Part shown: piece by piece, positions 3,220-28,016 of the stretch
How positions within the stretch are numbered: position 1 is the stretch's first letter
Layout: each line of letters opens with the position of its first letter
DNA from: a virus
Lineage: Duplodnaviria; Caudoviricetes
Virus record (IMG/VR): IMGVR_UViG_3300034008_000092
Location: 1 to 38,544 of that record
DNA length: 38,544 nucleotides
Strand: one strand, 5' to 3'
Program-made: the position numbers and the translations under genes
The notes under the pieces: generated by a model
What the model saw: only the letters and a program-made list of their open reading frames with translations
What the model was told of the DNA's origin: nothing
The model's database searches: none

Positions 3220-4410
3220 TTAGTCGTTGCCCTTTGTGGTGCCCTTGGCGTTGATTTCAGCCATGGCCGCGGCGGCGGTGAGCTTGCCGATGCCGGCACC
3301 AGCGGCCGAGGCGGTTACTTCCGTTACCAGCGATTTGCGGGCGGGCAGCTTGTCGAGCAGCGCCGTGGTGCTGGCCAGGTTGGCCACCGCTAGGGTGGTG
3401 TAGTGCGGAGCCAGCTCCGCGGTGATTTTGCCCACCGTCACGGCGTTGGCTACCAGGTCGGAAACGGCCTTTTCGCCGGCGGCTTTTTCATCCTCAGCGG
3501 CTTTATCCTTGAAGGTTTTGAGCTCAGCCTCCGCGGTGGCTTTGTCGGCCTCCGCTTGCGTAGCCGCGGCCGTGGCCGTGGCCAGCGAGTCGGTGAGGGT
3601 GGTCACGGCCGCGGTGGCCGTGGCCAGGCCGGTGCGGGTGGTGGCCAGTTCGGTAAAGGCCGCGGTTACGGCACCGGTTACCTGCTCATCAGTCGAGGCG
3701 GCGGTGATGCCGGCCAGCAGTGAGGGGTGAGCTACTGCATTAGCCTGCAGAATCGGCAGCAATAAATTTTTCATGGTTGAGGTTTGGGAAGCGTTGGAAA
3801 GCTGCCCGCCGTAGAAGGCCTGCAGCTGTAAGAGGGAGGCCTCCGCGGTCGAGCTGGTGAGGTCGGCCGGGGGCGGGGTTGCGGATTTGGGCGCGTCGAT
3901 GATGCCGGTAGCGAAGCCCAGGCGCACGGCATCCTCCGCGCTCAGCCAGGTTTCGAGGGCCATCATTTCGCGGATTTTTTCAATCGGCAAGCCGGTGGCG
4001 TGGGTGTAGAGCAGGGCCATGCTTTCGTTTATGGCCCGCTGCCCTTCAATCGCTTTTTCTAAGTCGCCAATCTGCCCGGCCGCGGGGCCGCTGCAGTTGT
4101 GAATCATTAGCCGGGCGTGGGCCCTCATCAGGCGCTTGCGGCCGGCCATGAAAATCATCGATGCCGAGCTGGCCGCTATGCCATCGCAATAGGTATCGAT
4201 TTTGAGGGCTGAGGCCTTAATGAGGGCCACAATGCCCTGAGCCATTAGCCAGTTACCGCCCACCGAATTGAGGCGCACCTGCACCGCCCCGCTGCCGACC
4301 GAAACGGCCGCGGCGAGCTCACTCTGAAACCTATCCTGCGAAAAAGCGCAGTAGTCGTTCGGCTCCCCAGGGGTGCCGATGATGGAGTAAATGAGGATTA
4401 CGGGGGGCAT
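3220..4410 (-). CDS. ClpP-like head maturation protease with C-terminal scaffold
   Basis: VRLNSVGG, DGIAASSASMIFMAG (catalytic Ser), LMIHN and ETWLSAEDAVRLGFATGI are S14 family motifs; Ala-rich coiled-coil C-terminus. Confidence 0.9.
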   Translation of the reverse strand: MPPVILIYSIIGTPGEPNDYCAFSQDRFQSELAAAVSVGSGAVQVRLNSVGGNWLMAQGIVALIKASALKIDTYCDGIAASSASMIFMAGRKRLMRAHARLMIHNCSGPAAGQIGDLEKAIEGQRAINESMALLYTHATGLPIEKIREMMALETWLSAEDAVRLGFATGIIDAPKSATPPPADLTSSTAEASLLQLQAFYGGQLSNASQTSTMKNLLLPILQANAVAHPSLLAGITAASTDEQVTGAVTAAFTELATTRTGLATATAAVTTLTDSLATATAAATQAEADKATAEAELKTFKDKAAEDEKAAGEKAVSDLVANAVTVGKITAELAPHYTTLAVANLASTTALLDKLPARKSLVTEVTASAAGAGIGKLTAAAAMAEINAKGTTKGND

Positions 4411-4429
4411 AGGGTGCGATTCGAGTAGT

Positions 4430-4564
4430 CAAACCTACCGCCCGCCCGCACGTTTGCACTTTTCAAAGTTCAAACACCGGGTTTTTTAGCACCTTTTAAA
4501 GGGGAAAACCTTCCCTGAATGAAAACGGGAAAAGTGCCCCGCGCCCCCGCGGGCGGTAGTTTTC
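4430..4564. promoter_or_regulatory. Divergent late promoter pair sharing GAAAAGTGC-N10/11-GCGGGCGGTAGnTTT
   Basis: Inverted copies at 4430-4464 (- strand; includes TAGGTTTG, matching the Bacteroidota -7 box TAnnTTTG) and 4529-4563 (+ strand), between the two divergent structural operons. Confidence 0.6.
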
Positions 4565-4640
4565 GCTCCCGTTTCGCTCCTATTATGCCCTAGCCGCGCC
4601 CAAAAAGGCCGCGGCAGCGGCCCGGGGCCCCTTTTGCACT

Positions 4641-5267
4641 ATGGCCACCACCCCCCCCGATGATGAGCTGCTGCCCGATGAGCAGCCCGATGAGCAGCTG
4701 CCCGCTGATGAGCAGCCAGGCCCTGCCGAACGGGTAGCCATTAGCCGCGCTCAGCAGCGGCTGCTGCGCGAATTCATGGCCGGCGAAAAAGAAACCCGGC
4801 AGGACGTGGAAAGGAACCGGGCGAAGATTCGCCGGGTGATGCTGGACTTTATTAAAAACGAGCTCCGGAGCCCAACGGTGCAGGAGCTGGTGCAGCTCAC
4901 CGGGCTCTCCGATAAGACGGTAAAGGCCCACAAAAAGCACATCAAACTAGGGGACGGAAAGCCCAACATCTACCGGGATTTAACGCCCGATGTGGTGCTG
5001 AGCCTGTACAAGAAAGCGAAGGGCTTCACCTACACCGCGGAGAAACTGCTCACCGTGTCGGGCGGCGCGGGCATGGGCTCAGAGGTCGAGCGGCATGAGG
5101 TCGAGATGTATGTGCAGCCCGACACCGCGGCGGTAAAGCTCTGGTTTCAGCTAGTCGAGGGCTACAGCGATACCACCAAAACGGAGCACAGCGGCGAAGT
5201 AAAAACCGGGGGCGGGGCGGGCTTCTATTTCGAGTACGTAGTGCCGGAGGCTCCGAAAAATGACTAA
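4641..5267 (+). CDS. Terminase small subunit
   Basis: N-terminal HTH (PTVQELVQLTGLSDKTVKAH), then SLYKKAKGFTY...PDTAAVKLW...TEHSGEV; overlaps the start of TerL. Confidence 0.8.
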   Translation: MATTPPDDELLPDEQPDEQLPADEQPGPAERVAISRAQQRLLREFMAGEKETRQDVERNRAKIRRVMLDFIKNELRSPTVQELVQLTGLSDKTVKAHKKHIKLGDGKPNIYRDLTPDVVLSLYKKAKGFTYTAEKLLTVSGGAGMGSEVERHEVEMYVQPDTAAVKLWFQLVEGYSDTTKTEHSGEVKTGGGAGFYFEYVVPEAPKND

Positions 5268-7587: not shown

Positions 7588-9960
7588 ATGCAATTTCCGA
7601 CCAGCATCAGCCAGCTGAACCCGTTTAACTTTTTCGGGCGGGCTGCCAAGCAAAAGAGCATCCGAAACAAAATGTACCCGGTGCAGGTGCACCGGCTCCG
7701 GCAGGACGTGGGCCGGTGGCGGGCCGCGCTTGACCGGGCCGAAGGGGTGTATTTCCCCGACCGCACGGCCCTGCTGAACATTTACGCCGATTTGGTGCTA
7801 GACCCGCACCTCAGCACGGTGATGGAAACGCGCCTAATTAACGTGCTCAGCAAGCCCTTTAAGCTGCAGGACGCGAAAGGAGCAGAGCAGCCGGAGCTCA
7901 CCAAACTGCTGCGAAAGCCCTGGTTTCGCAAGTTTTGCGGGCTGGCTTTGGAGTCGATTTTTTACGGGCACACGCTTATCGAGTTTTCGGTGCCGGTGGC
8001 CGGCCAGTTCCCCGGCTGCGATTTGGTGCCGCGGCAATACGTTTCTCCCGAATTGGGAATTGTACGCACCATGCCCGGGCAAATCAATGGCACGGAGTAC
8101 CGGGATAATCCGGAGTTTTCGCCGTGGCTCATCGAAATAGGTGAGCTCACCAACCTAGGCCTACTCAATAAGGCCGCGCCTATGGCCCTCTACAAAAAGA
8201 ACGTAGTGAGCGCGTGGGCCGACTTTACCGAAATTTTCGGGATGCCCTACCGCGCCGTTACAACGGAGGCCGAGGGCGACGAATTAGAGCGCATTGAGGA
8301 AATTATTGCCAACATGGGGCAGGCCTCCTACGGGGTGTTTCCGGATGATGTAAAAATTGAGTGGATTAGCGCGGCCACCGGTAACGTGGGCCTCTATGAT
8401 ACGTTTGTAGAACGCGCCAATTCGGAGCTCAGCAAGCTGTTTTTGGGTCAAACAATGACCACCGACAACGGCAGCAGCAAAAGCCAGGGCGAAGTACATG
8501 AGCGGGTTTCGGCCAGCTACACCCGTTCCGATGCTGACCTGCTGGCCGGCATCATTAATGAGCAGCTGCTGCCCTTCATGGTGCAGCACGGCTACCAGGT
8601 GGCCGGGTGTGAATTTATCTACGATGAAACGGAGCAGCTAGGCAAGCTAGACCAATTCAAAATAGCCGAGGGCTTTATTAAAGCGGGCCTGCCCGTAAAA
8701 AAGACGTGGCTACAAACGACGTTCGGGGTTGAGTTTGAAGATGCCCCCGCGGCAGCTGGTGCAGCACCTGGTGCCGAGGGCGCGGCAGCAAAGCCCTACC
8801 TAGGCTATCACATCGAAACCGGCGTAGTGTCGAGGAATGAGGCCCGCGCTCAGCTGAGCCTGCCGGCCGAGGATGAAAGCGCGGATAAGGGGCGGGCGGT
8901 GCTCAAAGCTCAGCTGGCCATCGTAGCCGCGGCCACTACCGCCGGCGTTCCCTTAGAGGCGGCCCTGCAGCTGGCCGAGCTCAAAATTTCCCTACCCCCG
9001 GCCGATGCTGCCGGCGCGGGTGATGATGAGCCGGAGCCGCCGGAAGGTGATAAGCCCCGCCCGGGCGGTGCACCAGGTGAGCAGGGAGGCGGGCCGGGAA
9101 AGTCTGAGGGCTCACCGGCCGCGCCGGTGGGCCCTAACCCCGCGGCCGAGCTGCAGGCCCTCTACGGCAGCACCAGCTGCTGCACCGCGCACTCGCTGGC
9201 CGCGGCCAGCGCGGCCGGGGTGCCCGGCCCTGGTGATGATGCCGAGCTGGCCAGCCTTTGGGACAGGCTTGTAAATGTGGTGTACGCCGGCGCGGGTGAG
9301 GCGCTGCTCATCGACCTGCCTCTATTTGAGTTCATCGATAACGCGCTGCAGGGCGCGATAAATATCGCGTGGGAGGCCACCGACCCGGCCCTAAAAAAGT
9401 ACCTGTATAAAAATGTACAGCGCTTTTCGGGCTTCAAATCGCACAAGGTTTGCCAGCAGCTCACCCGGGCGCTCACCGATGCCGACGGGAAAATTATCGA
9501 TTTCGCGGCCTTCAAAGCGGAGGCCGAGAAAATCAATAATCTGTACAATGTCGCATACTTAAAAACAGAGTATGAGCAGGCGGTTGCCGCGGCGCAAATG
9601 GCCTCTAAGTGGGCCGAATTTGAGCCGGAGGGGCTGCTGCAGTACCGCACCGTAGGCGACGATTTAGTAAGGCCGGAGCACCGGAAATGGGATAACATCA
9701 CCCTGCCGGCCTCCCATCCATGGTGGGCCACTCACTACCCGCCCAACGATTGGAATTGTCGGTGTGATGCGGTCGAGCTGGTAGATGATGAGCACCCGCA
9801 AACCTCCGCTGAGGTGCTGGCCAGCGTGCCGGCCCCGCCGGCGCTGTTCGCGCACAACGTGGGCAAAGCCGGCGTGATTTTCGGGCCGGAGCACCCCTAT
9901 TTCGATGTGCCCGCGGCCACCGCGAAAGCCATCGATAAACAGCTAAAACTTAACTTATAA
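7588..9960 (+). CDS. Portal (Mu gp29/DUF935-like) fused to MuF minor head domain
   Basis: N-part DPHL...LGLLNKAAP...WADFTEIFGMP...SELSKLFLGQTMTT...SQGEVHE; C-part YLKTEYEQA...LQYRTVGDDLVRPEH...YPPNDWNCRC (MuF signature). Confidence 0.9.
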   Translation: MQFPTSISQLNPFNFFGRAAKQKSIRNKMYPVQVHRLRQDVGRWRAALDRAEGVYFPDRTALLNIYADLVLDPHLSTVMETRLINVLSKPFKLQDAKGAEQPELTKLLRKPWFRKFCGLALESIFYGHTLIEFSVPVAGQFPGCDLVPRQYVSPELGIVRTMPGQINGTEYRDNPEFSPWLIEIGELTNLGLLNKAAPMALYKKNVVSAWADFTEIFGMPYRAVTTEAEGDELERIEEIIANMGQASYGVFPDDVKIEWISAATGNVGLYDTFVERANSELSKLFLGQTMTTDNGSSKSQGEVHERVSASYTRSDADLLAGIINEQLLPFMVQHGYQVAGCEFIYDETEQLGKLDQFKIAEGFIKAGLPVKKTWLQTTFGVEFEDAPAAAGAAPGAEGAAAKPYLGYHIETGVVSRNEARAQLSLPAEDESADKGRAVLKAQLAIVAAATTAGVPLEAALQLAELKISLPPADAAGAGDDEPEPPEGDKPRPGGAPGEQGGGPGKSEGSPAAPVGPNPAAELQALYGSTSCCTAHSLAAASAAGVPGPGDDAELASLWDRLVNVVYAGAGEALLIDLPLFEFIDNALQGAINIAWEATDPALKKYLYKNVQRFSGFKSHKVCQQLTRALTDADGKIIDFAAFKAEAEKINNLYNVAYLKTEYEQAVAAAQMASKWAEFEPEGLLQYRTVGDDLVRPEHRKWDNITLPASHPWWATHYPPNDWNCRCDAVELVDDEHPQTSAEVLASVPAPPALFAHNVGKAGVIFGPEHPYFDVPAATAKAIDKQLKLNL
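9096..9135 (+). other. Putative -1 ribosomal frameshift signal in the portal-MuF linker
   Basis: In-phase G_GGA_AAG (9096-9102), 13-bp stem-loop at 9107-9135; the -1 frame reads GTC TGA. Confidence 0.6.
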
Positions 9961-9964
9961 GGTA

Positions 9965-10417
9965 ATGGCCAGTCGAAACGACTTTAAGCTATTCGCCAAG
10001 CAGGCGAAAATCGTAATCAAGGGGCTGCCGAAAATGATAGGCAAAGTAGCCCTATTGGAGGCCTCCGATAACTTTCGGCGCGGGGGCGCGGAGAATGAGG
10101 CCGGCCAGGTCGAGCCGTGGGCCCCGCGCAAAAACCAGAAAGCGCACGGCCGCACCCGGCAGGACGGGGCCCGGGATAGGCGCTTTAAGAATCCGCGGCA
10201 GCGGGCGCTGCTGGTGCAAACCGGCCGGCTCCGGCGTAGCCCGCGGATAGTGGCCACCACTAGCAACAGCGTTACGATTGGCACAGATGTGCCCTACGCT
10301 CAGCCGCTGCAGGAGGGGACTCCGCACATGGCTGCGCGGCCGTTCCTGACGCTAGGGCCGACTAGCCGGCAAACCATCATCCGGAAGGCCGCGGCCGACC
10401 TAGAAAAGCTCCTTTGA
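9965..10417 (+). CDS. Phage virion morphogenesis protein (Mu gpG-like tail completion)
   Basis: NFRRGG...PWAPRK...LLVQTGRLRRS...IGTDVPYAQPLQEGT...MAARPFL. Confidence 0.85.
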   Translation: MASRNDFKLFAKQAKIVIKGLPKMIGKVALLEASDNFRRGGAENEAGQVEPWAPRKNQKAHGRTRQDGARDRRFKNPRQRALLVQTGRLRRSPRIVATTSNSVTIGTDVPYAQPLQEGTPHMAARPFLTLGPTSRQTIIRKAAADLEKLL

Positions 10418-11238: not shown

Positions 11239-11299
11239 CGCCGTATTAAAGAGCATAAAACCATCAAACTTTGATGGTTTTATGCTCTTTAATACGGCG
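11239..11299. repeat. Perfect 61-bp palindrome (30-bp arms, 1-nt centre)
   Basis: CGCCGTATTAAAGAGCATAAAACCATCAAA-C-TTTGATGGTTTTATGCTCTTTAATACGGCG. Confidence 0.97.
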
Positions 11300-11358
11300 T
11301 TGTGCGTTACTTGTGCCGCAATAGTGGCCAGTGAAACAGTGAGTTACCGCCAAAATAT

Positions 11359-11390
11359 AAAGGCCCGCTACACGTCTGTAGCGGGCCTTT
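11359..11390. terminator. Hairpin, probable bidirectional intrinsic terminator
   Basis: AAAGGCCCGCTACA-cgtc-TGTAGCGGGCCTTT between convergent operons. Confidence 0.65.
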
Positions 11391-11492
11391 CGGACATTTG
11401 CGCGGGTGGCATCGGTTTTTCAGCCCGGCCGGCGGCCTGCGGTAGCCCTATAAGAGGGGCCCGCTCAGCAGCTGCCGGCCCGCAAAGATGCA

Positions 11493-11531
11493 CAAAAAAG
11501 CCCCCCGGGGCAGTTACCGGGGGGCTTTTTG
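11493..11531. terminator. Bidirectional intrinsic terminator
   Basis: AAAAAAGCCCCCCGG-8 nt-CCGGGGGGCTTTTT, with T-tracts on both strands. Confidence 0.8.
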
Positions 11532-11595
11532 CTGGTGCTGAATTTCCCAACACAGCAGAGCAGCGGGGCCACTGACAGCGCGGCCGGGTGCAAAT

Positions 11596-12189
11596 CTACG
11601 ATAGGGGAGGGGCCTCAGCAGCACCAGGTGCTGCAGCAGCTGGTGCACCGGTGGCCGCCGGCAGCGGGGTGATGTGCGTAGCCACCCAGGGCGCGGCCCC
11701 GTCGTGCCGCTCAAAGGTTACGTGCCGAATGGCCAGGCGCTGCGCCTGCTGCTCCGGCGTGGGCTCCGGCGCGGTGATGCCGAGCCGCGGCACATCGGGC
11801 GCTACCGAAACGACTACTTTATTTTGCCCTTGCTGCTGGCCGTACTTGTTGAAGTGCTGCCGGGCAAGGGCAACGGTGCCGGCATCAGCGGGGCCGGTGC
11901 GGTCGAATCGAATCCAATCGGTGAAAGCCAGGCTGCCGGGCTGGTGCTTAAACCAGCTGGCCACCGCGGGCGGGGCATCGGGCCAATGGATATAAGCAGC
12001 GCCCGTTTCCCCTAGGATTTGCGGCATCAGTTCGCCGGTGGGTATCGAGGCCGGAAAGGTGCGCTGCTTCACGCCACCACCCCAAACCGGGTGCGCCGGC
12101 TCATCGGATGAGTAGAGCAGGGTAACAATGGTTTCGCGCTCCGGCGTGGTGTCGAGTAGCACCTTATCAAGCAAAATTCTAGTGTCCAT
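11596..12189 (-). CDS. Hypothetical protein
   Basis: Long ORF; ATG (MDTRILL) follows an AT-rich leader. No recognisable motif. Confidence 0.65.
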   Translation of the reverse strand: MDTRILLDKVLLDTTPERETIVTLLYSSDEPAHPVWGGGVKQRTFPASIPTGELMPQILGETGAAYIHWPDAPPAVASWFKHQPGSLAFTDWIRFDRTGPADAGTVALARQHFNKYGQQQGQNKVVVSVAPDVPRLGITAPEPTPEQQAQRLAIRHVTFERHDGAAPWVATHITPLPAATGAPAAAAPGAAEAPPLS

Positions 12190-12221
12190 TTTTAGGGGTT
12201 GGTGTAGGATTAAAGGCAAAA

Positions 12222-12467
12222 CTAGGCAACGCTGAGGCAGGCCACCGGCTTACGGGTGAGCAGGCTCTCACAGCTACGGTACAGGTAGAGGCTGCCGCTC
12301 CGGTGCTCAATCTGCCAGCGGTTGCCGCACAGGGGCCGGATATTGAAGCTAAAGGCCAGGGGGTCGGTTACCATCGGATTGCTGGCCAGCAGCTCATCGA
12401 TGCGGGCCTGCAGGTCGAGCTCCGCGGTGCTCTTAATCGGCCGGAAGTAGGTTATTTTTAGCGCCAT
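12222..12467 (-). CDS. Hypothetical protein
   Basis: Start overlaps the upstream gene end; operon packing. Confidence 0.55.
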   Translation of the reverse strand: MALKITYFRPIKSTAELDLQARIDELLASNPMVTDPLAFSFNIRPLCGNRWQIEHRSGSLYLYRSCESLLTRKPVACLSVA

Positions 12468-13042
12468 CCTACCAGGTTCTCATCTTCATCTTCGGGCTGC
12501 CAGAGGCCACCACCGCCCGGGGCCATTTCGTCGGGGCCGGGCGGGTGCTCTGCCAGGTTGAGCAGGCTCTGCAGGTCGGCATCGGCCAGGCAGTAGGGGC
12601 CCGGGCCCTGCAGCAGCCGGCCATCGACCTGCTTCATGGCCTCCGCGGGGCTCATGCCCGCCCAGCCGAGCACTATCGACTCGCTGCCGGCCGCGGTGGT
12701 GAGTTGGTGCCACACATCACGCCAGGCCTGCTCACGTTCGTAGCCGGGCAGCGCGAAGTAATTCAGCTGCAGCGGGGCCGGGGTGCGGCGGCGGCTGGTG
12801 TCGGGGGTGAGCTGAATCGGGCCGAGGTTGGGAAAGGCTTCGCGGAGGCGGTCGATAGCCTCCATTTCGGTAGTCGCGTAGAGCTCACCGTGCTGGCCGG
12901 TCGGGGTGCGGTCGGGCAGGGTGATGCCCTGCCAGCACCAGCACCAGGCCCGCTCTGAGGCCGGGCCGAATCGGCTCCGCGCCTCCATTTCGGGGGTGAG
13001 CACCAGGGCGGGGGTAGGGGTATTTTCGGGGGGTGATTGCAT
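12458..13042 (-). CDS. Hypothetical protein
   Basis: 194-aa ORF starting just downstream of the dif-like site. Confidence 0.6.
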   Translation of the reverse strand: MQSPPENTPTPALVLTPEMEARSRFGPASERAWCWCWQGITLPDRTPTGQHGELYATTEMEAIDRLREAFPNLGPIQLTPDTSRRRTPAPLQLNYFALPGYEREQAWRDVWHQLTTAAGSESIVLGWAGMSPAEAMKQVDGRLLQGPGPYCLADADLQSLLNLAEHPPGPDEMAPGGGGLWQPEDEDENLVGWR

Positions 13043-13083
13043 GAGTAGGAAGTGTTTTGTAACTTGCTGATTTACAAGATTCT

Positions 13084-13111
13084 ACTTAACATAAGGTAAA
13101 TTATAAGACAA
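13084..13111 (-). other. dif-like XerC/XerD recombination site
   Basis: The - strand reads TTGTCTTATAA-TTTACC-TTATGTTAAGT: 11-6-11 layout, XerD arm 10/11 identical to E. coli dif TTATGTTAAAT, left arm ends in ATAA. AT-rich island in a GC-rich genome. Confidence 0.85.
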
Positions 13112-13253
13112 ATAGCCAAAGTGCGGCCCCGGCCAGAATTACCAGGCAGCCGAGGCTGAGGCCAACCATGGCCCGGCGAAACCGGCGCTTTGTCCGTGCT
13201 ATTTCGGCTTTGATTTCGGCAATCAGCCGGAGTTCGTTCTCAAAAAGTGGCAT
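13101..13253 (-). CDS. Small membrane protein (50 aa), below ORF-track cutoff
   Basis: MPLFENELRLIAEIKAEIARTKRRFRRAMVGLSLGCLVILAGAALWLFVL*; its stop codon lies inside the XerC arm. Confidence 0.55.
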   Translation of the reverse strand: MPLFENELRLIAEIKAEIARTKRRFRRAMVGLSLGCLVILAGAALWLFVL

Positions 13254-18275: not shown

Positions 18276-18887
18276 TTAGTTGGTTTCCTCCGCAAAAAAG
18301 AACTGGTGCCAATTCGAGGGACGAAATTCCCGGCTGAAAGGTGCCGCCACTAGCACCGGGTGCTCAGCCAGGTGCCCGGTAGCATCTTCGCGGGCCGACT
18401 CGTTACGTAGCACCCCCTCCGCGTGGGCCCACCGGTCGGCATCGCTGAGGGCCTGCCAGGCTTCAGCATCACCGGCGAAACCTTCAGCCGTTGGGAAGAA
18501 TTCGCCCGCGCTGCAGTAGATAAAAACCGGCTCATCATCGCGCTGCAGCAGCAGCATAGTTACCTCCGGCCAGCCGGCCTCAAATCGGAGCACATCGGTA
18601 TCGATGCCGCGGCGAATCAGCTCAGCCAGCCAGGGCCGGTTTGGGCCATCGACCCAAACAATGTTTTCAATCTGCCCGCTGAGGCGGGCCACTAGCACGG
18701 CCATATCGTTGCCCAGCTGCAGGCAGGCGTTAAGGTCGGCAACGGTCGGCAGCACCTGCCCACTGCTCCGCACCCGGCCGATAGTGAGCTGCCGGTGCAC
18801 CTCACTGCAGAGGCGGTAACGTTCGGAGCCCTGCACCACCGCCGGGGCCTCCGCGGTGCTGGCTGACTTGAAATAAATCCTGCTCAT
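18276..18887 (-). CDS. Hypothetical protein
   Basis: 203-aa ORF, first gene after a terminator. Confidence 0.65.
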   Translation of the reverse strand: MSRIYFKSASTAEAPAVVQGSERYRLCSEVHRQLTIGRVRSSGQVLPTVADLNACLQLGNDMAVLVARLSGQIENIVWVDGPNRPWLAELIRRGIDTDVLRFEAGWPEVTMLLLQRDDEPVFIYCSAGEFFPTAEGFAGDAEAWQALSDADRWAHAEGVLRNESAREDATGHLAEHPVLVAAPFSREFRPSNWHQFFFAEETN

Positions 18888-22775: not shown

Positions 22776-23774
22776 TTAGTCGTTTTTCCGACTCAGCAGG
22801 GCAAGCTGCTGCAGCCAGGGCAGTAGGTCGGTGCCGGCGGCGGCGTGGTGCAGCAGCCACTGCCTCAGCTGCCGTTTCTGGCAGTTGGTGCGCCAATGTG
22901 CGGCCAGCGGGTGAGAACCCGGCACGGCACCGGTGCGGAGCAGCTGAGCAAAGGAGCGGTGCGAAGGGGTGCGCGGCAGCTCCCGACCGATGAGCAGCCC
23001 CTCTTTGACCATAATCCGAAACTGCCCGCCGTAGTAGGGCGAAATAGCGCCGATGTGGCGAAGCCAGCGAAACAGCAGCCCGCCATCATCATACTTTGCC
23101 GGCAGCTGGTAAGCCCCCGGCCCGGGGCGCTGGCCTCCCCGCGGCTCCGGTACTGGCTGCCGGCCGGCGGCCCGGGCGGTGGCCACCAACTCAGCCACCC
23201 GGGCCGGGTAGTCGGCCTGCACATCGGGCACCGGCAGGCTGAGCAGCTGCCGGTGCTCATCGGCCCGCTGCAGGGCCCGCAAGGCCTGCGCCCGGCTGCC
23301 CTGCGAGTAGGCCGCGCACCAGCTGCGAATCGTAGGCAGCGAAGCAAGCAGGCGCTCATCGGGCTTTCTCCATTCGCCCGAACAGCCCCGGCGCATGGCC
23401 GCGCACAACTCCGCAAGGGTGAGGCCGGGAAAATCGCGCTGCACCATTTCGGCCACCGCCGTAGCCATGGCCAGCAAATCATCACCGCCGAGCAAGGTCT
23501 GAGAATGGCCCAGCAGAAACGGCACCAGGGCCACCGGCTCCAATAAATCATCGATGAGGTCAGCGGTGGCCAGCTGCTTAACCGGGCGGGCCTCCGTATT
23601 GCAGAGCAGCAGCGCGGCCGACTCAACCGCCGGAGCCAGGCCCGCCGGCACCAGGTCGGCCGAGTAGCGCACCAGGCCCACCGCGGGCCGAACGGTGAGG
23701 CCGGTCGAGGCCGGTCGGGTAGGGGCCTGCAGCGCGGAACTCATCGCGGCCCCGATGTGCAGAATTTTACCCAT
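22776..23774 (-). CDS. Putative helicase loader (lambda P-position protein)
   Basis: Overlaps the Rep end; DFPGLTLAELCAAMRRGCSGEW...SLPTIRSW..AY resembles proteins following phage Rep genes in Bacteroidota (recalled). Confidence 0.5.
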   Translation of the reverse strand: MGKILHIGAAMSSALQAPTRPASTGLTVRPAVGLVRYSADLVPAGLAPAVESAALLLCNTEARPVKQLATADLIDDLLEPVALVPFLLGHSQTLLGGDDLLAMATAVAEMVQRDFPGLTLAELCAAMRRGCSGEWRKPDERLLASLPTIRSWCAAYSQGSRAQALRALQRADEHRQLLSLPVPDVQADYPARVAELVATARAAGRQPVPEPRGGQRPGPGAYQLPAKYDDGGLLFRWLRHIGAISPYYGGQFRIMVKEGLLIGRELPRTPSHRSFAQLLRTGAVPGSHPLAAHWRTNCQKRQLRQWLLHHAAAGTDLLPWLQQLALLSRKND

Positions 23775-24756
23775 CGGACTGCCCTCCCGAATTTTGGGCG
23801 CGGAGCTTGGCCCGGGCGGCATCGATGCCGACACTACGGGCCCCAAGCTGGCCACCGGTCGACTTGGCCACCTTCACGGCCTGCTCTGCTTCGCGGTCGG
23901 CCTTGTAATCGATGTACGAAAAGGCCCGGGCCGTAGCCCGCCAATTCGTTATCGGCCGGCCCCCTTTGGTGCACCAATTAAATTGGTCGTAATAATCAAA
24001 AAACAGCTTTCCGCGGCCGGCGTGTTTGCTAATTTCCGGGTCGGGGTGGCCGGCCAGGTAAGCATCGACCATGGCCACCGATTGCGGCCGGGCCTCCCAT
24101 TTGCGCGGGTCGGAGTCGGCCAGGCGCTCATCGACAAACCCACCGCGGAGGGTTTCGCCCTCAGCCAGCGGCAGCGGCACCTGCCGGCCCTCTGATGTAT
24201 CTACATCGTTCCGCGCCCTGGTGTGCGAAGCCGACGCGGTAGGGTTTTCAACCTCATCAGAGCCCCTTTTTTTTTCGGGCCCCGCCCCACCCGTTAGAAC
24301 GTCTTTAACAACTTTAACCTCTCTTATAGTATCATCAAAATTTGATGGTTTGTCTGATGGTTTTGTTGATGGTTTTACCGGGCCGACGTAGTTAAAACCT
24401 TCCGAAAAACCATCAGTTAAACCATCAAAATCTGATGGTTTTATTTCTTCAATCGGGGGCTTAATCCGGTACACTTTCAGCAGCCGGAGCTGCCCGACGT
24501 TGCCCCGCCCGCGTTTGGCTTCGATGTAGTGAATCACCCCGCGGGCCTGCAGCTCAGCCAGGCCTTTTCTAACGGTGCCCTCCGCGCTGCCGGTGAGCAG
24601 CTGCAGCATCGGCACGTTTACCGGCAGGCTGGCCTCCCATTGCCGTGATTTGTTGAAGTGGTAAAGAATCCGATGGAACAGCCCCCGGGCCGAGTCGGAA
24701 AAAAACTTCTCATTTTCGAGGGCGTTAAACTGATTTGCATAGCGGAGCCAATTCAT
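23767..24756 (-). CDS. Replication initiator (N-terminal wHTH, lambda O-like organisation)
   Basis: wHTH LQLLTGSAEGTVRKGLAELQARGVI, internal iterons, C-terminal FFDYYDQFNW..GGRPITNWRATAR. The start could be 24846. Confidence 0.8.
   Translation of the reverse strand: MNWLRYANQFNALENEKFFSDSARGLFHRILYHFNKSRQWEASLPVNVPMLQLLTGSAEGTVRKGLAELQARGVIHYIEAKRGRGNVGQLRLLKVYRIKPPIEEIKPSDFDGLTDGFSEGFNYVGPVKPSTKPSDKPSNFDDTIREVKVVKDVLTGGAGPEKKRGSDEVENPTASASHTRARNDVDTSEGRQVPLPLAEGETLRGGFVDERLADSDPRKWEARPQSVAMVDAYLAGHPDPEISKHAGRGKLFFDYYDQFNWCTKGGRPITNWRATARAFSYIDYKADREAEQAVKVAKSTGGQLGARSVGIDAARAKLRAQNSGGQSDG
24331..24444. repeat. Iteron cluster / probable replication origin inside rep
   Basis: TGATGGTTT at 24343, 24355, 24367 and 24433; its complement AAACCATCA at 24407 and 24419; 12-bp period; adjacent AT-rich stretch. 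Confidence 0.8.
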
Positions 24757-24848
24757 CGGCGGGGCCTCCGCGCCGGATTGGGCGGGTAGCTCTGGCCGGT
24801 CGGGCGCAATGCCCATCAGTGGCGGCAGTGGTGCAGTGGCTCCCATAC

Positions 24849-25143: not shown

Positions 25144-26304
25144 CTAAGCGGCACTGCTGCCCACTTCGTTGAGGTAGCTAGTGCCCTGCTCCAATTCTTC
25201 GCGGAGCTTGGCGGTGTTATAGTCAGGGTTTACACAAATGGCCAGCAGGCGGGCTACCTCCTTTTTGCCCAGGGCCCCGCCGTTGGCGTTGGCTAAAAAC
25301 CTCAGCTGCGCCTCAACCTCTGCCCGGCTGCCCGGCACCTGCAGCTGCTCATATTCGGCCCCGATAGCGGCCGTTAGCTCCGCGTAGTTTGCCGGCAGGT
25401 CGGCCCCGGCCTCTGTGATGGTTTTCACCAGGCGGGTGATGCAGGTTTCTGCCCGTTCGTGCGTAAAGCGGAGGTAATTCAGCAGCGCCGTGCTGCGCGT
25501 GGTTTGCGGTATGGCCGGATTTTGCAGCAGGGCCCCGATGAGCTGATGCTGCAGGCCGGTGCTCAGCAGGATGCCGGCGGCCTGCACTCGTGCGTTACGG
25601 TCGGCCACCGCGGCAGCTGCCGAGCCCGGGGTTGGCACCCGGCGCGGCGGGGTGGTGCTGGCCACCATCACCGGCGGGGCCGAGGCGGGCACCTCCGGCT
25701 GCACCAGTGGCTCAGCCGGTGCCTCAGCCGGGGCCGGGGTGATGCGGGCCGCGGCCCCGGTTGGCGTTGCCACATTTGGAACAGCTGCCGGCGCGGTGCT
25801 GTAGTCCATTTCTTCCGCGGGGGTGGCTTCATAGCCCGCGGCGCGAATAATCCAGGCCAGAATATTGCGGTAGGCCTTGCCGATTGCCCGCGTCTGTGCC
25901 ATGCTCAAAATCGCAAATTCCTGGTTGGATTTCTGCCGCGGCTCCTTGTTTGAACAAATGGCAAAGCCCGCGCCAACCGTCACCCCTTGCTGCAGGCTAA
26001 AGAGCGTAACCTGAACCTCATACTTGATTTCTTCGCTAGTAGAGCGGTTTTTTACCTTTTGCACAATTGGCACAATGCCCAACCGGCTGCCGGCGTACTG
26101 CCAGCCTTCCACGTTCACAAACTCTTTGCCCTGTACGTTCGTGGTGAGCTTGTTCTCTTTGATGAATTTAGCCAGGTCGTTAGCCAGGCCGAGGGTATCA
26201 GCGCCGTAGTTGGTGCCGGGCACTGGTGCAGCCTGAACAGTAGTAAGGCCGGTAGATTTTGGCCGGCCGGGGCCGCGTTTTGTGGTTTTTACTGCAGGAG
26301 TCAT
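25144..26304 (-). CDS. Single-strand annealing recombinase (Rad52/Sak/ERF-like) with N-terminal AT-hook
   Basis: VQGKEFVNVEGW...GFAICS..E...ILSMAQTRAIGKAYRN...TPAEEM; KRGPGRPK AT-hook. Confidence 0.65.
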   Translation of the reverse strand: MTPAVKTTKRGPGRPKSTGLTTVQAAPVPGTNYGADTLGLANDLAKFIKENKLTTNVQGKEFVNVEGWQYAGSRLGIVPIVQKVKNRSTSEEIKYEVQVTLFSLQQGVTVGAGFAICSNKEPRQKSNQEFAILSMAQTRAIGKAYRNILAWIIRAAGYEATPAEEMDYSTAPAAVPNVATPTGAAARITPAPAEAPAEPLVQPEVPASAPPVMVASTTPPRRVPTPGSAAAAVADRNARVQAAGILLSTGLQHQLIGALLQNPAIPQTTRSTALLNYLRFTHERAETCITRLVKTITEAGADLPANYAELTAAIGAEYEQLQVPGSRAEVEAQLRFLANANGGALGKKEVARLLAICVNPDYNTAKLREELEQGTSYLNEVGSSAA

Positions 26305-26758: not shown

Positions 26759-26995
26759 CTAGGCCTTGCCGAGCAGCTGCTGCTCTAATATTTCGGTGCA
26801 GAGTGCGGCAAGTGGCCATTTCTTCATTTTTGGCCCCCTTTTGCTATTGGTCGGGTAGGTTAGGCCCCGGTCGAGCTGCAGCTGAGCCAGGGCGCGGCCG
26901 GCCGGCCCGCTGATGATGGTGCGAACATCGTAGGGCGTATCATCCTCAGCGGTGGCCAGGTCAGGCGGGGCGGTGTCGGTCATGGTGTCGAGCAT
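26759..26995 (-). CDS. Small putative DNA-binding regulator (ribbon-helix-helix-like)
   Basis: First gene after the early promoter; strand-helix-helix pattern VRTIIS-GPAGRALAQLQL...PLAALCTEILEQQL. Confidence 0.45.
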   Translation of the reverse strand: MLDTMTDTAPPDLATAEDDTPYDVRTIISGPAGRALAQLQLDRGLTYPTNSKRGPKMKKWPLAALCTEILEQQLLGKA

Positions 26996-27025: not shown

Positions 27026-27060
27026 CAAACTTACACACTTTTACACAAACTATCACAAAA
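27026..27060 (-). promoter_or_regulatory. Main early promoter with 34-bp operator repeat (copy 2)
   Basis: TAAGTTTG (-7 box) at 27026-27033, TTTG about 22 nt upstream, overlapping the repeat shared with 17159-17192. Confidence 0.78.
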
Positions 27061-27075
27061 AAGATGCAGGCCACG

Positions 27076-27107
27076 AAAAAGGGGCCGACCGCGCCGGCCG
27101 GCCCCTT
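27076..27107 (-). terminator. Terminator of the tail operon
   Basis: AAGGGGCCG...CGGCCCCTT stem with T5 on the - strand. Confidence 0.7.
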
Positions 27108-27137
27108 ACTCGCTGCAGCAGCTGGTGCACCTGGTGC

Positions 27138-28016
27138 TCAGTCGAGCCCTATCCACTGCCATACTACCGTAACGTAGTAGGGCGGCCGGTTTTCGTGGGC
27201 CTGGTTGCCGCCGGTGCTGCCCGTCGTTTTGTTATCGTTGCGCTCCTGATAGGGGCGGGCATTGCTGCCTGCGTCGGTGTCCCGCGTTTCGGCGTGATAC
27301 TTATCTACGTAGGGGTGCGTGTGGGCCGGCATTTGGGCAATGGTGAGCGTTACCGACTCCGCGCCCCCGGTTTTGCCTACCGTGTCGTAGTCCCCGCCCG
27401 CGTCGGTTGGGTTATCGGAGTAGGCCACCCGCCAGAGCTTGCGGAGGTCGGCCGTGCCGTTGGCCGCGTTGCCGTTGGCCAGGGCCCACCCGGCCCGCGG
27501 GCCATCGGCCAGGCCGCGGCCGGTCGGGTCGATGATATCAGCGGTCGGGGCCGGTGCTACGCTATCCTGCAAATCACCCAGCTGCCGGGTGAGGCTTTCG
27601 ACCCACTTCGCATAGGTGCGGGTAGCCCCGCGCTGAAAGAGCACCCGCTGAGTGCCGGCGGGGGCCGTGCCATCGGGCTGAGTAACGAGGGTGAGCTCAC
27701 TCATGCAGGCCTTGCTGCCGCCCGTTTGGTAGGGCCGAAAGTCGGTATCATCGGCCGGGCCGGCCACCACCTCAGCCGGAAACGTTACCCCGTTGGCTCC
27801 GAGGTAGCGGCAGATTTGGCCGGCTATCCAAATGTAGCCGGCCGAAATATCACCGGTGGCCGCGCCCGGGGCCCGGCTCACTACGCACCCGCTGAGCACC
27901 ATCGCGGGCGCTCCCTGCAGCGGGGACTCAATAGCATCGTGTGCCTCCGTTTGAAGGGTCAGAATATCATCGTTCGTAAACGGCCGGCCGCCGGTATCGA
28001 GTTGTAAAAGGTTCAT
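27138..28016 (-). CDS. Tail fibre / collar-domain baseplate protein
   Basis: VLSGC...GYIWIAG; GWALANG..GTADLR...KTGGAESVTLTIAQMPAHTH...AHENRPPYY. Confidence 0.8.
   Translation of the reverse strand: MNLLQLDTGGRPFTNDDILTLQTEAHDAIESPLQGAPAMVLSGCVVSRAPGAATGDISAGYIWIAGQICRYLGANGVTFPAEVVAGPADDTDFRPYQTGGSKACMSELTLVTQPDGTAPAGTQRVLFQRGATRTYAKWVESLTRQLGDLQDSVAPAPTADIIDPTGRGLADGPRAGWALANGNAANGTADLRKLWRVAYSDNPTDAGGDYDTVGKTGGAESVTLTIAQMPAHTHPYVDKYHAETRDTDAGSNARPYQERNDNKTTGSTGGNQAHENRPPYYVTVVWQWIGLD

Follow-up and report, generated by a model that had tools for sequence, protein, structure and literature searches.

A dif-type Xer site shared with plasmids in a tailed phage genome without a detectable integrase

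The Xer site and its neighbourhood

The DNA analysed here (the window, 38,544 nucleotides) is a tailed-phage record that carries, on the minus strand and reading from 13111 to 13084, the 28-mer TTGTCTTATAA TTTACC TTATGTTAAGT (Table 1). The layout of this 28-mer, and arms that match the host dif, support its assignment as a dif-type XerCD site. A single match to the core pattern occurs in the window, against a mean of 0.00 in 100 shuffles, and thus the 11-6-11 dif-like site proposed in an earlier sequence-only reading is borne out as a single-copy element. The next-best place in the window has 8 arm mismatches; in CTX elements another dif-like site lies inverted about 90 nt from the first, and the phage has none.

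One correction concerns the position of the site, which is partly genic: a 50-aa ORF has its stop codon inside the XerC arm. A weak terminator-like hairpin also overlaps the site. The site lies at the distal end of the early operon, which is not where the relatives have att, and it lies 11.3 kb from the likely origin in one direction and 27.1 kb in the other. Just downstream is a 194-aa orphan with four homologues, all on contigs of at most 39.5 kb; a search for its function gave no match, and its candidacy as a hidden Xer activator was dropped after searches gave nothing. A 203-aa gene (18276-18887) was considered for the same role. It is common to G002, a colinear relative, and to the unrelated phage G278, and is absent from the integrated relatives. 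Its product belongs to a large unannotated family (1,088 clusters) and has a confident model (pLDDT 87) with no match among PDB folds (best Z 4.1). This candidate was rejected on the size of the family, the lack of a fold match and the absence of the gene from G003, another unrelated phage that carries a site.

Table 1. Features of the window that bear on the Xer site (positions in the window; strand as reported)
Feature	Position	Strand	Basis or remark
28-bp Xer site, 11-6-11	13084..13111	-	pattern and arm comparison
XerC-type arm	13111-13101	-	
Centre TTTACC	13100-13095	-	
XerD-type arm	13094-13084	-	
50-aa ORF, stop codon inside XerC arm; dispensable	13101..13253	-	deleted in X3 relative
194-aa orphan just downstream of Xer site	12458..13042	-	adjoins the site in G002 too
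Predicted replication initiator with internal repeats	23767..24816	-	inferred lambda O-like
Iteron-like repeat cluster	24326..24444		repeats
Predicted Rad52/Sak-type single-strand annealing protein	25144..26304	-	model pLDDT 75
78-aa regulator-like ORF heading early operon	26759..26995	-	ribbon-helix-helix/Cro-like by eye only
Tail-fibre/early-operon junction	27028..27138		about 110 bp without integrase, prophage ends or CI
Perfect 61-bp palindrome with inverted pair of origin repeat	11239..11299		family-wide

Genome structure and gene content

A terminal overlap of 127 nt, classed as direct terminal repeats, closes the record into a circle of 38,417 bp; this overlap confirms the closed circular genome that had been claimed. 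CheckV puts completeness at 78%, but G002 is colinear with the window, circularly permuted and 38.9 kb long. The virion module is of the contractile-tail, Mu-like type (Pfam, PHROGs). It resembles the module of the Bacteroidota phage Hankyphage p00 in its Mu-like portal, protease and sheath genes, and the capsid protein is 31% identical to that of Bacteroides phage p00. In contrast to Hankyphage p00, no transposase was found here, and the family of the phage uses a tyrosine integrase or, as in the window, none. The portal is fused to a Mu gpF-like head protein, and the terminase-portal operon is divergent from the protease-capsid-tail operon (7588-9960 and 4410-4641).

No recombinase was found by Pfam (124 of 243 ORFs, including those of at least 100 aa), by PHROGs (70 ORFs) or NCBIfam (35 ORFs), or in six-frame searches with PF00589, PF16684 and PF00239. 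The six-frame PF00589 search overlooked a real integrase in the relative G281, and for this reason an HMM built from 12 integrases of the phage's own relatives is the decisive test. This model recovers its training member G281 at 1e-124, gives a best E of 0.64 in the window, and finds nothing significant in G002, G003, G278 and G279. With DDE transposases covered through the ORF scans only, the earlier observation that no ORF on the circle shows tyrosine, serine or DDE recombinase motifs is borne out.

Genes for ParA/ParB, toxin-antitoxin systems or CI were likewise not detected by Pfam, PHROGs and NCBIfam, many early ORFs being without annotation. Nothing therefore accounts for repression or segregation, which counts against persistence as a free circle. 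P1 has partition, addiction and repressor systems, and no counterpart of these was detected in the phage. The maintenance genes and repressor that define a P1-like phage-plasmid are thus not seen here, and a novel system might lie among the early unannotated ORFs.

Replication and early-region genes

The predicted initiator has no Pfam or NCBIfam match. Its homologues in G001, G002 and G004 each contain their own internal repeats, and the iteron-like cluster is likely to be the origin, as judged from its repeats. The structural model of the annealing protein superimposes on RAD52 with Z 9.2, rmsd 4.8 and 126 aligned residues; Foldseek also returns RAD52 (probability 1.00, E 1.5e-3), with one unrelated lipoprotein ranking higher, and sequence comparison with the PDB gave nothing significant. 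The predicted Rad52/Sak-type protein is a likely source of multimers. A gene 79% identical to its Rad52-like domain occurs outside the prophage of G061, among host housekeeping genes (G061:C1 70284-71084).

The 78-aa ORF at the head of the early operon has no family match; it aligns at 38% with its G002 equivalent and at 25% with the Cro-position gene of G282. At the tail-fibre/early-operon junction, relatives have an integrase, the prophage ends and a divergent CI-type gene.

The perfect palindrome is family-wide and independent of the Xer site. Its inverted origin-repeat pair recurs at about 23630 in G002, at 10345-10367 in G001 and at region offset 33468 in G004; it lies about 13 kb from the origin, just past the late operon, and covaries with each phage's own iterons. 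This covariation suggests that the pair is likely to be a second initiator-binding site, kept in free and integrated members. A linear plasmid-prophage with a protelomerase, at which the palindrome might hint, was rejected, PF16684 and any tyrosine recombinase being absent and the dyad occurring also in integrated relatives. The latter observation also disposes of the palindrome as a plasmid copy-control locus of the free state. Circularisation by terminal redundancy in the manner of P1 was judged unlikely, as about 8 kb, more than one fifth of the genome, separates the site from terS.

The host and its chromosomal dif

Hymenobacter is most likely the host, as had been supposed: portal homologues at 47-65% occur in Hymenobacter assemblies, and the capsid gene is present in 9 of 274 Hymenobacteraceae genomes, all nine within the 165 of Hymenobacter. 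Genus-wide tallies take in one genome marked unpublished (G120). The dif pattern is found in 159 of the 165. Among the matches listed (150 of 396; by eye), the centre TTTATA is present in exactly one copy in each of 59 genomes, and two flanking genes are common to all five TTTATA loci that were opened. From consensus, single copy and synteny, we infer that the TTTATA locus is the chromosomal dif. Local skew around it is inconsistent. The FtsK-orienting octamer of E. coli (KOPS) is oriented 53 toward and 31 away near the host dif, and a reversed control is likewise skewed (27 vs 5). XerD scores above the cut-off in each of three Hymenobacter genomes tested, together with one paralogue.

The expected resemblance between the 28-mer and Hymenobacter dif is clear in the arms, where 22 of 22 bases are identical to the chromosomal dif L291. 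Over the whole site the identity is 26/28; the only differences, at positions 16-17 beside the XerD arm, give TTTACC in the phage and TTTATA in the chromosome, and the same two differences from the phage recur in all ten chromosomal sites that were retrieved. Extra perfect-arm sites in Hymenobacter begin with C or G in 19 of 19 cases among the matches listed (by eye). On some Hymenobacter contigs (G023:C14, G038:C6, G049:C68, G063:C6), dif-like sites with C/G-start centres occur two or more together, spaced by 1-12 kb and for the most part inverted, an arrangement that resembles Acinetobacter pdif modules.

Plasmid twins in sister genera

Centres with a TT start and a non-A end were found in 34 of 109 sister-genus genomes but in just one of the 165 from Hymenobacter, where the centre is TTGGGC and the contig 31 kb long. 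TTTACC is dominant in the latter, with 27 sites in 21 genomes, and is absent from all 165 Hymenobacter genomes; the plasmid twins come from sister genera. This, like the C/G start of the extra sites in Hymenobacter itself, counts against the reading favoured below, in which a plasmid-class site resolves multimers of the free circle. None of the 27 sites is on the same contig as TTTATA, and 19 of the 21 genomes show TTTATA elsewhere. For example, G203, G205, G224 and G246 have TTTATA on the large contig C1 and TTTACC on C2, with Rep3 on C2 in two of the four. By eye, the neighbours of TTTACC sites include plasmid-type genes (Rep, umuDC, defence genes). One TTTACC site ends a 462-kb contig, which likewise speaks against that reading, and the double site on G209:C6 stems from the duplication of a large block.

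Complete plasmids in PLSDB carry one site each: the match is 30/30 in Pontibacter akesuensis and 29/29 in Rufibacter tibetensis, and the matches in the plasmids of P. kalidii and Adhaeribacter swui are at 96.7% and 93.3%. The phage 28-mer is identical to the site on plasmid NZ_CP014767.1, and 3 of 15 TTTACC loci of sister genera equal the phage site at 28/28. The sharing between phage and plasmids is confined to 28-30 bases, and PLSDB holds no close capsid or Rep relative of the phage. In the two of four plasmids examined for it, the annotation shows no recombinase gene in the 5-6 kb around the plasmid site. On sister-genus chromosomes, a second inverted dif-like site lies about 60-64 bp from the main dif (G205:C1 4483182/4483245; G209:C2 705931/705994; also G224:C1, G246:C1 and G259:C4).

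Site or integrase among relatives

In all ten distinct integrated relatives (G001, G004-G008, G061, G098, G280, G282) the prophage is edged by a tyrosine integrase, and the fetched regions contain no dif-like site. The window (G000) and G002, both complete free genomes, show the opposite: the site is there, and neither integrase nor CI was found. The mutual exclusivity of site and integrase gives a Fisher p of 0.015, with tips that are not independent; the table excludes fragments (G110, G112, G279, L003, L058, L135, L137, L139) and G281, which is the same prophage as G061. A divergent HTH_3/CI-type gene occurs in all three relatives tested and in neither the window nor G002. In a tree of six structural proteins rooted on G282, the window groups with the integrase-bearing G001 and G004 (support 100), and the site-bearing genomes therefore appear not to be one clade.

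Further sites occur in the fragment G279, in the opposite orientation, and in two unrelated GC-rich phages, G003 (TTAACC) and G278 (identical 28-mer); the TTTACC centre is kept in the window, X3, G279 and G278. No close copy was found in cultured tailed phages, and a Rep search in viral contigs found nothing. A broad viral survey with an 18-base pattern returned 43 records against 37 in the reversed control, a count so near chance that it was not used. Sixteen of the 43 are right at three unqueried arm bases (0.34 expected), and on inspection only these look real; PF00589 was found in none of the 16, a figure that has no baseline for comparison. Dif-like sites are also intergenic in AT-rich phage records (L457 8179-8206, L459 1903-1930, L460 12263-12290, L461 9675-9702), often between divergent gene blocks. 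The provirus G292 combines a weaker site in mid-record with an integrase at one edge.

In G001 (C1 14321-24167; L001 155-10001) an insert of about 9.8 kb lies in the start of the portal gene. It has its own integrase of 439-453 aa, a second tape-measure gene (72% to that of the window), an N-terminal piece of the portal and a palindrome with the prophage iteron; it is possibly a satellite integrating in its helper.

Selection on the site and the search for junctions

Conservation of the site in related phages had been named as a check, and the site is unchanged in the diverged X3 relative, which shows no changes in 13083-13112 and 22 in the neighbouring 143 bases (P 0.007). Six changes fall within 12 bases just outside the XerD arm, and the 50-aa ORF is lost with a joint at 13112, immediately outside the XerC arm. 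This pattern points to purifying selection on the Xer site.

No prophage or hybrid site was found beside the chromosomal dif in 165 Hymenobacter genomes, and no phage-chromosome junction in three metagenome runs (contigs only, low depth). In the likely source run, one unbranched unitig (11255-13250) runs across the site. A match to the Xer site only is also seen in four short low-depth contigs; these are foreign on both sides where the flank is seen, and hence are other dif copies rather than att junctions. Of the chromosomal prophages, the seven with full context are each either distant from dif or on a different contig; two more are short fragments. The free-type marker family is absent in any form from the 165 Hymenobacter assemblies, by a search run without a positive control.

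How the site may be used

We give about an even chance to the reading that the 28-mer belongs to the dif-type class borne by Hymenobacteraceae plasmids and that host XerC and XerD recombine sister copies of the unintegrated circle there, thereby resolving multimers, and do not insert it at the chromosomal dif. It is the lack of integrase and CI, together with a site identical to that of a plasmid, that makes resolution of free circles likelier than insertion. The genome would circularise after entry and replicate from the iteron origin, and the Rad52-like protein together with host RecA would generate dimers. XerCD would split these at sister sites, since the sites have identical centres, and would probably be activated by FtsK, as no accessory sequence is common to the sites. 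The two-base difference beside the XerD arm would impede a full exchange with the chromosomal site, an effect also proposed for Vibrio dif1/dif2; divergent centres on co-resident replicons have been proposed to prevent fusion (Val et al., PMC2533119). The likely benefit would be inheritance of the free circle by daughter cells of a carrier, in place of the integrase-plus-CI cassette that the relatives use.

The sequence-only reading had offered two fates, lysogeny at the host dif through XerCD and a plasmid-prophage that resolves its dimers at this site. The former found no backing: no hybrid site is present in the 165 genomes, no junction in the three runs and no CI in the phage, and plasmids with the same centre stay separate from the chromosome. 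From the latter, multimer resolution on a free circle is kept as the best fit; a true plasmid-prophage is conjectural, as no partition or toxin-antitoxin gene was found and none of the 165 assemblies has a marker of the free type.

Insertion in the manner of VGJphi nevertheless has to be weighed. Here XerC alone would swap one strand pair with the chromosomal dif, replication would resolve the junction, and the phage would sit at dif. The phage has no integrase, and the first four centre bases of its site equal those of the host with mismatches on the XerD side, as in the VGJphi attP (PMC5357621); because of this shared mismatch, sequence alone does not decide against integration. The three family sites that were found without bias all start with TT, as in the chromosome, which is also a VGJ-type signature and counts against the multimer-resolution reading. 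Mutual exclusivity of site and integrase also speaks for insertion, and Bacteroidetes microviruses have been inferred to integrate at dif (PMC3091885). The distribution of sites argues against integration at dif. A TT-start, non-A-end site is missing from 164 of 165 Hymenobacter genomes, the seven prophages with full context lie away from dif, and, within limited sampling, a phage integrated between hybrid attL and attR was seen in none of the genomes or runs, the low-depth source run giving an unbranched path across the site. Moreover, dif-type Vibrio prophages have a repressor beside attP (PMC12715192), and none was found in the window. Altogether, insertion of this kind appears distinctly unlikely.

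A stronger contender, still rather unlikely, places the site in the lytic cycle of a virulent derivative, in which XerCD would act from copy to copy, decatenating theta products or building multimeric circles for headful packaging. It makes the same sequence-level predictions as multimer resolution in a carrier cell, and it accommodates the loss of both integrase and CI, the lack of maintenance genes, the absence of the free type from host assemblies and the presence of comparable sites in phages unrelated to this one, among them a large phage known from a fragment. However, the site falls in a class of stably kept plasmids, the Rad52-like protein could make multimers already, and Xer activity that depends on FtsK is coupled to division of the cell (PMC2533119), which suits a dividing carrier cell better. 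The site might instead be a decoy, hundreds of copies soaking up XerC/XerD or stalling FtsK and so blocking chromosome resolution and division of the host. Full consensus arms under selection and an obligately lytic gene set would fit, but Xer binding requires the arms only, and yet the centre is conserved too; with just one copy per genome besides, we regard a decoy as very improbable. About as improbable is a passenger, that is, a plasmid fragment gained by recombination or a terminator or promoter element with no Xer role. Overlap with a stop codon and a hairpin would suit it, whereas only 28-30 bases are common to plasmids, the site outlasted deletion of the ORF and divergence of its flanks in X3, it is seen in both orientations, and three unrelated phage types carry it.

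Relation to known Xer systems

The closest likeness to the multimer-resolution reading is with the dif2-type sites of V. cholerae, on which host XerCD and FtsK act and which are also 28 bp and 11-6-11, with host-like arms, one copy per replicon and a centre that differs from that of the main chromosome (PMC2533119). The phage differs in that its replicon is a tailed-phage genome of 38 kb with no partition genes, and FtsK dependence of its site is putative. In cer (ColE1) and psi (pSC101) host XerCD also resolves multimers of an extrachromosomal circle, but these sites need about 200 bp of accessory sequence (PMC5357621, PMC2533119); flanks are not conserved among the phage or plasmid copies, and accessory proteins can bind loosely defined DNA. 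VGJphi, CTXphi, TLCphi, GGI, dif-type double-jelly-roll phages and Bacteroidetes microviruses resemble the phage in having no recombinase of their own, and VGJphi has a single dif-like site with XerD-side centre mismatches (PMC5357621). The phage differs from VGJphi-type elements in that no integrated copy or hybrid att was found and the virion is that of a tailed dsDNA phage. TLC and GGI pair a host-like centre with a degenerate XerD arm, whereas the phage pairs a consensus XerD arm with a differing centre. P1, with Cre/loxP, is a tailed phage with a site that resolves genome multimers (named in PMC2533119); the phage would be a functional parallel with borrowed enzymes, P1 encoding its own recombinase.

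The literature found on dif use concerns filamentous, microvirus, double-jelly-roll and satellite elements and, among the titles and abstract openings listed by a search mostly of freely accessible papers, no tailed phage; the accessible parts of PMC3603311 and bioRxiv 633727 have nothing on tailed phages at dif. Nothing was found on a Hymenobacter phage at dif or on phage-plasmids with XerCD multimer resolution. New here are the exact plasmid twin and the exchange, within one family, of integrase plus CI for an Xer site.

Significance

When a phage lacks an integrase, it is as a rule classified as lytic. Here a conserved Xer site of the plasmid class is present precisely where integrase and CI are missing, which suggests that host enzymes handle the multimers of such a phage, and perhaps its persistence; nor should a dif-like site alone be taken for the attP of a phage. 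We tentatively propose, as a possibility that may well prove wrong, that one family swaps modules between integration through integrase and CI and a repressor-less, partition-less free circle that relies on host XerCD. If true, the swap would be a minimal and so far unrecognised mode of tailed-phage persistence in soil Bacteroidota, with the TTTACC site as a searchable marker, and the Xer site would offer, within 28 bases, a way into the carrier-state persistence of soil phages.
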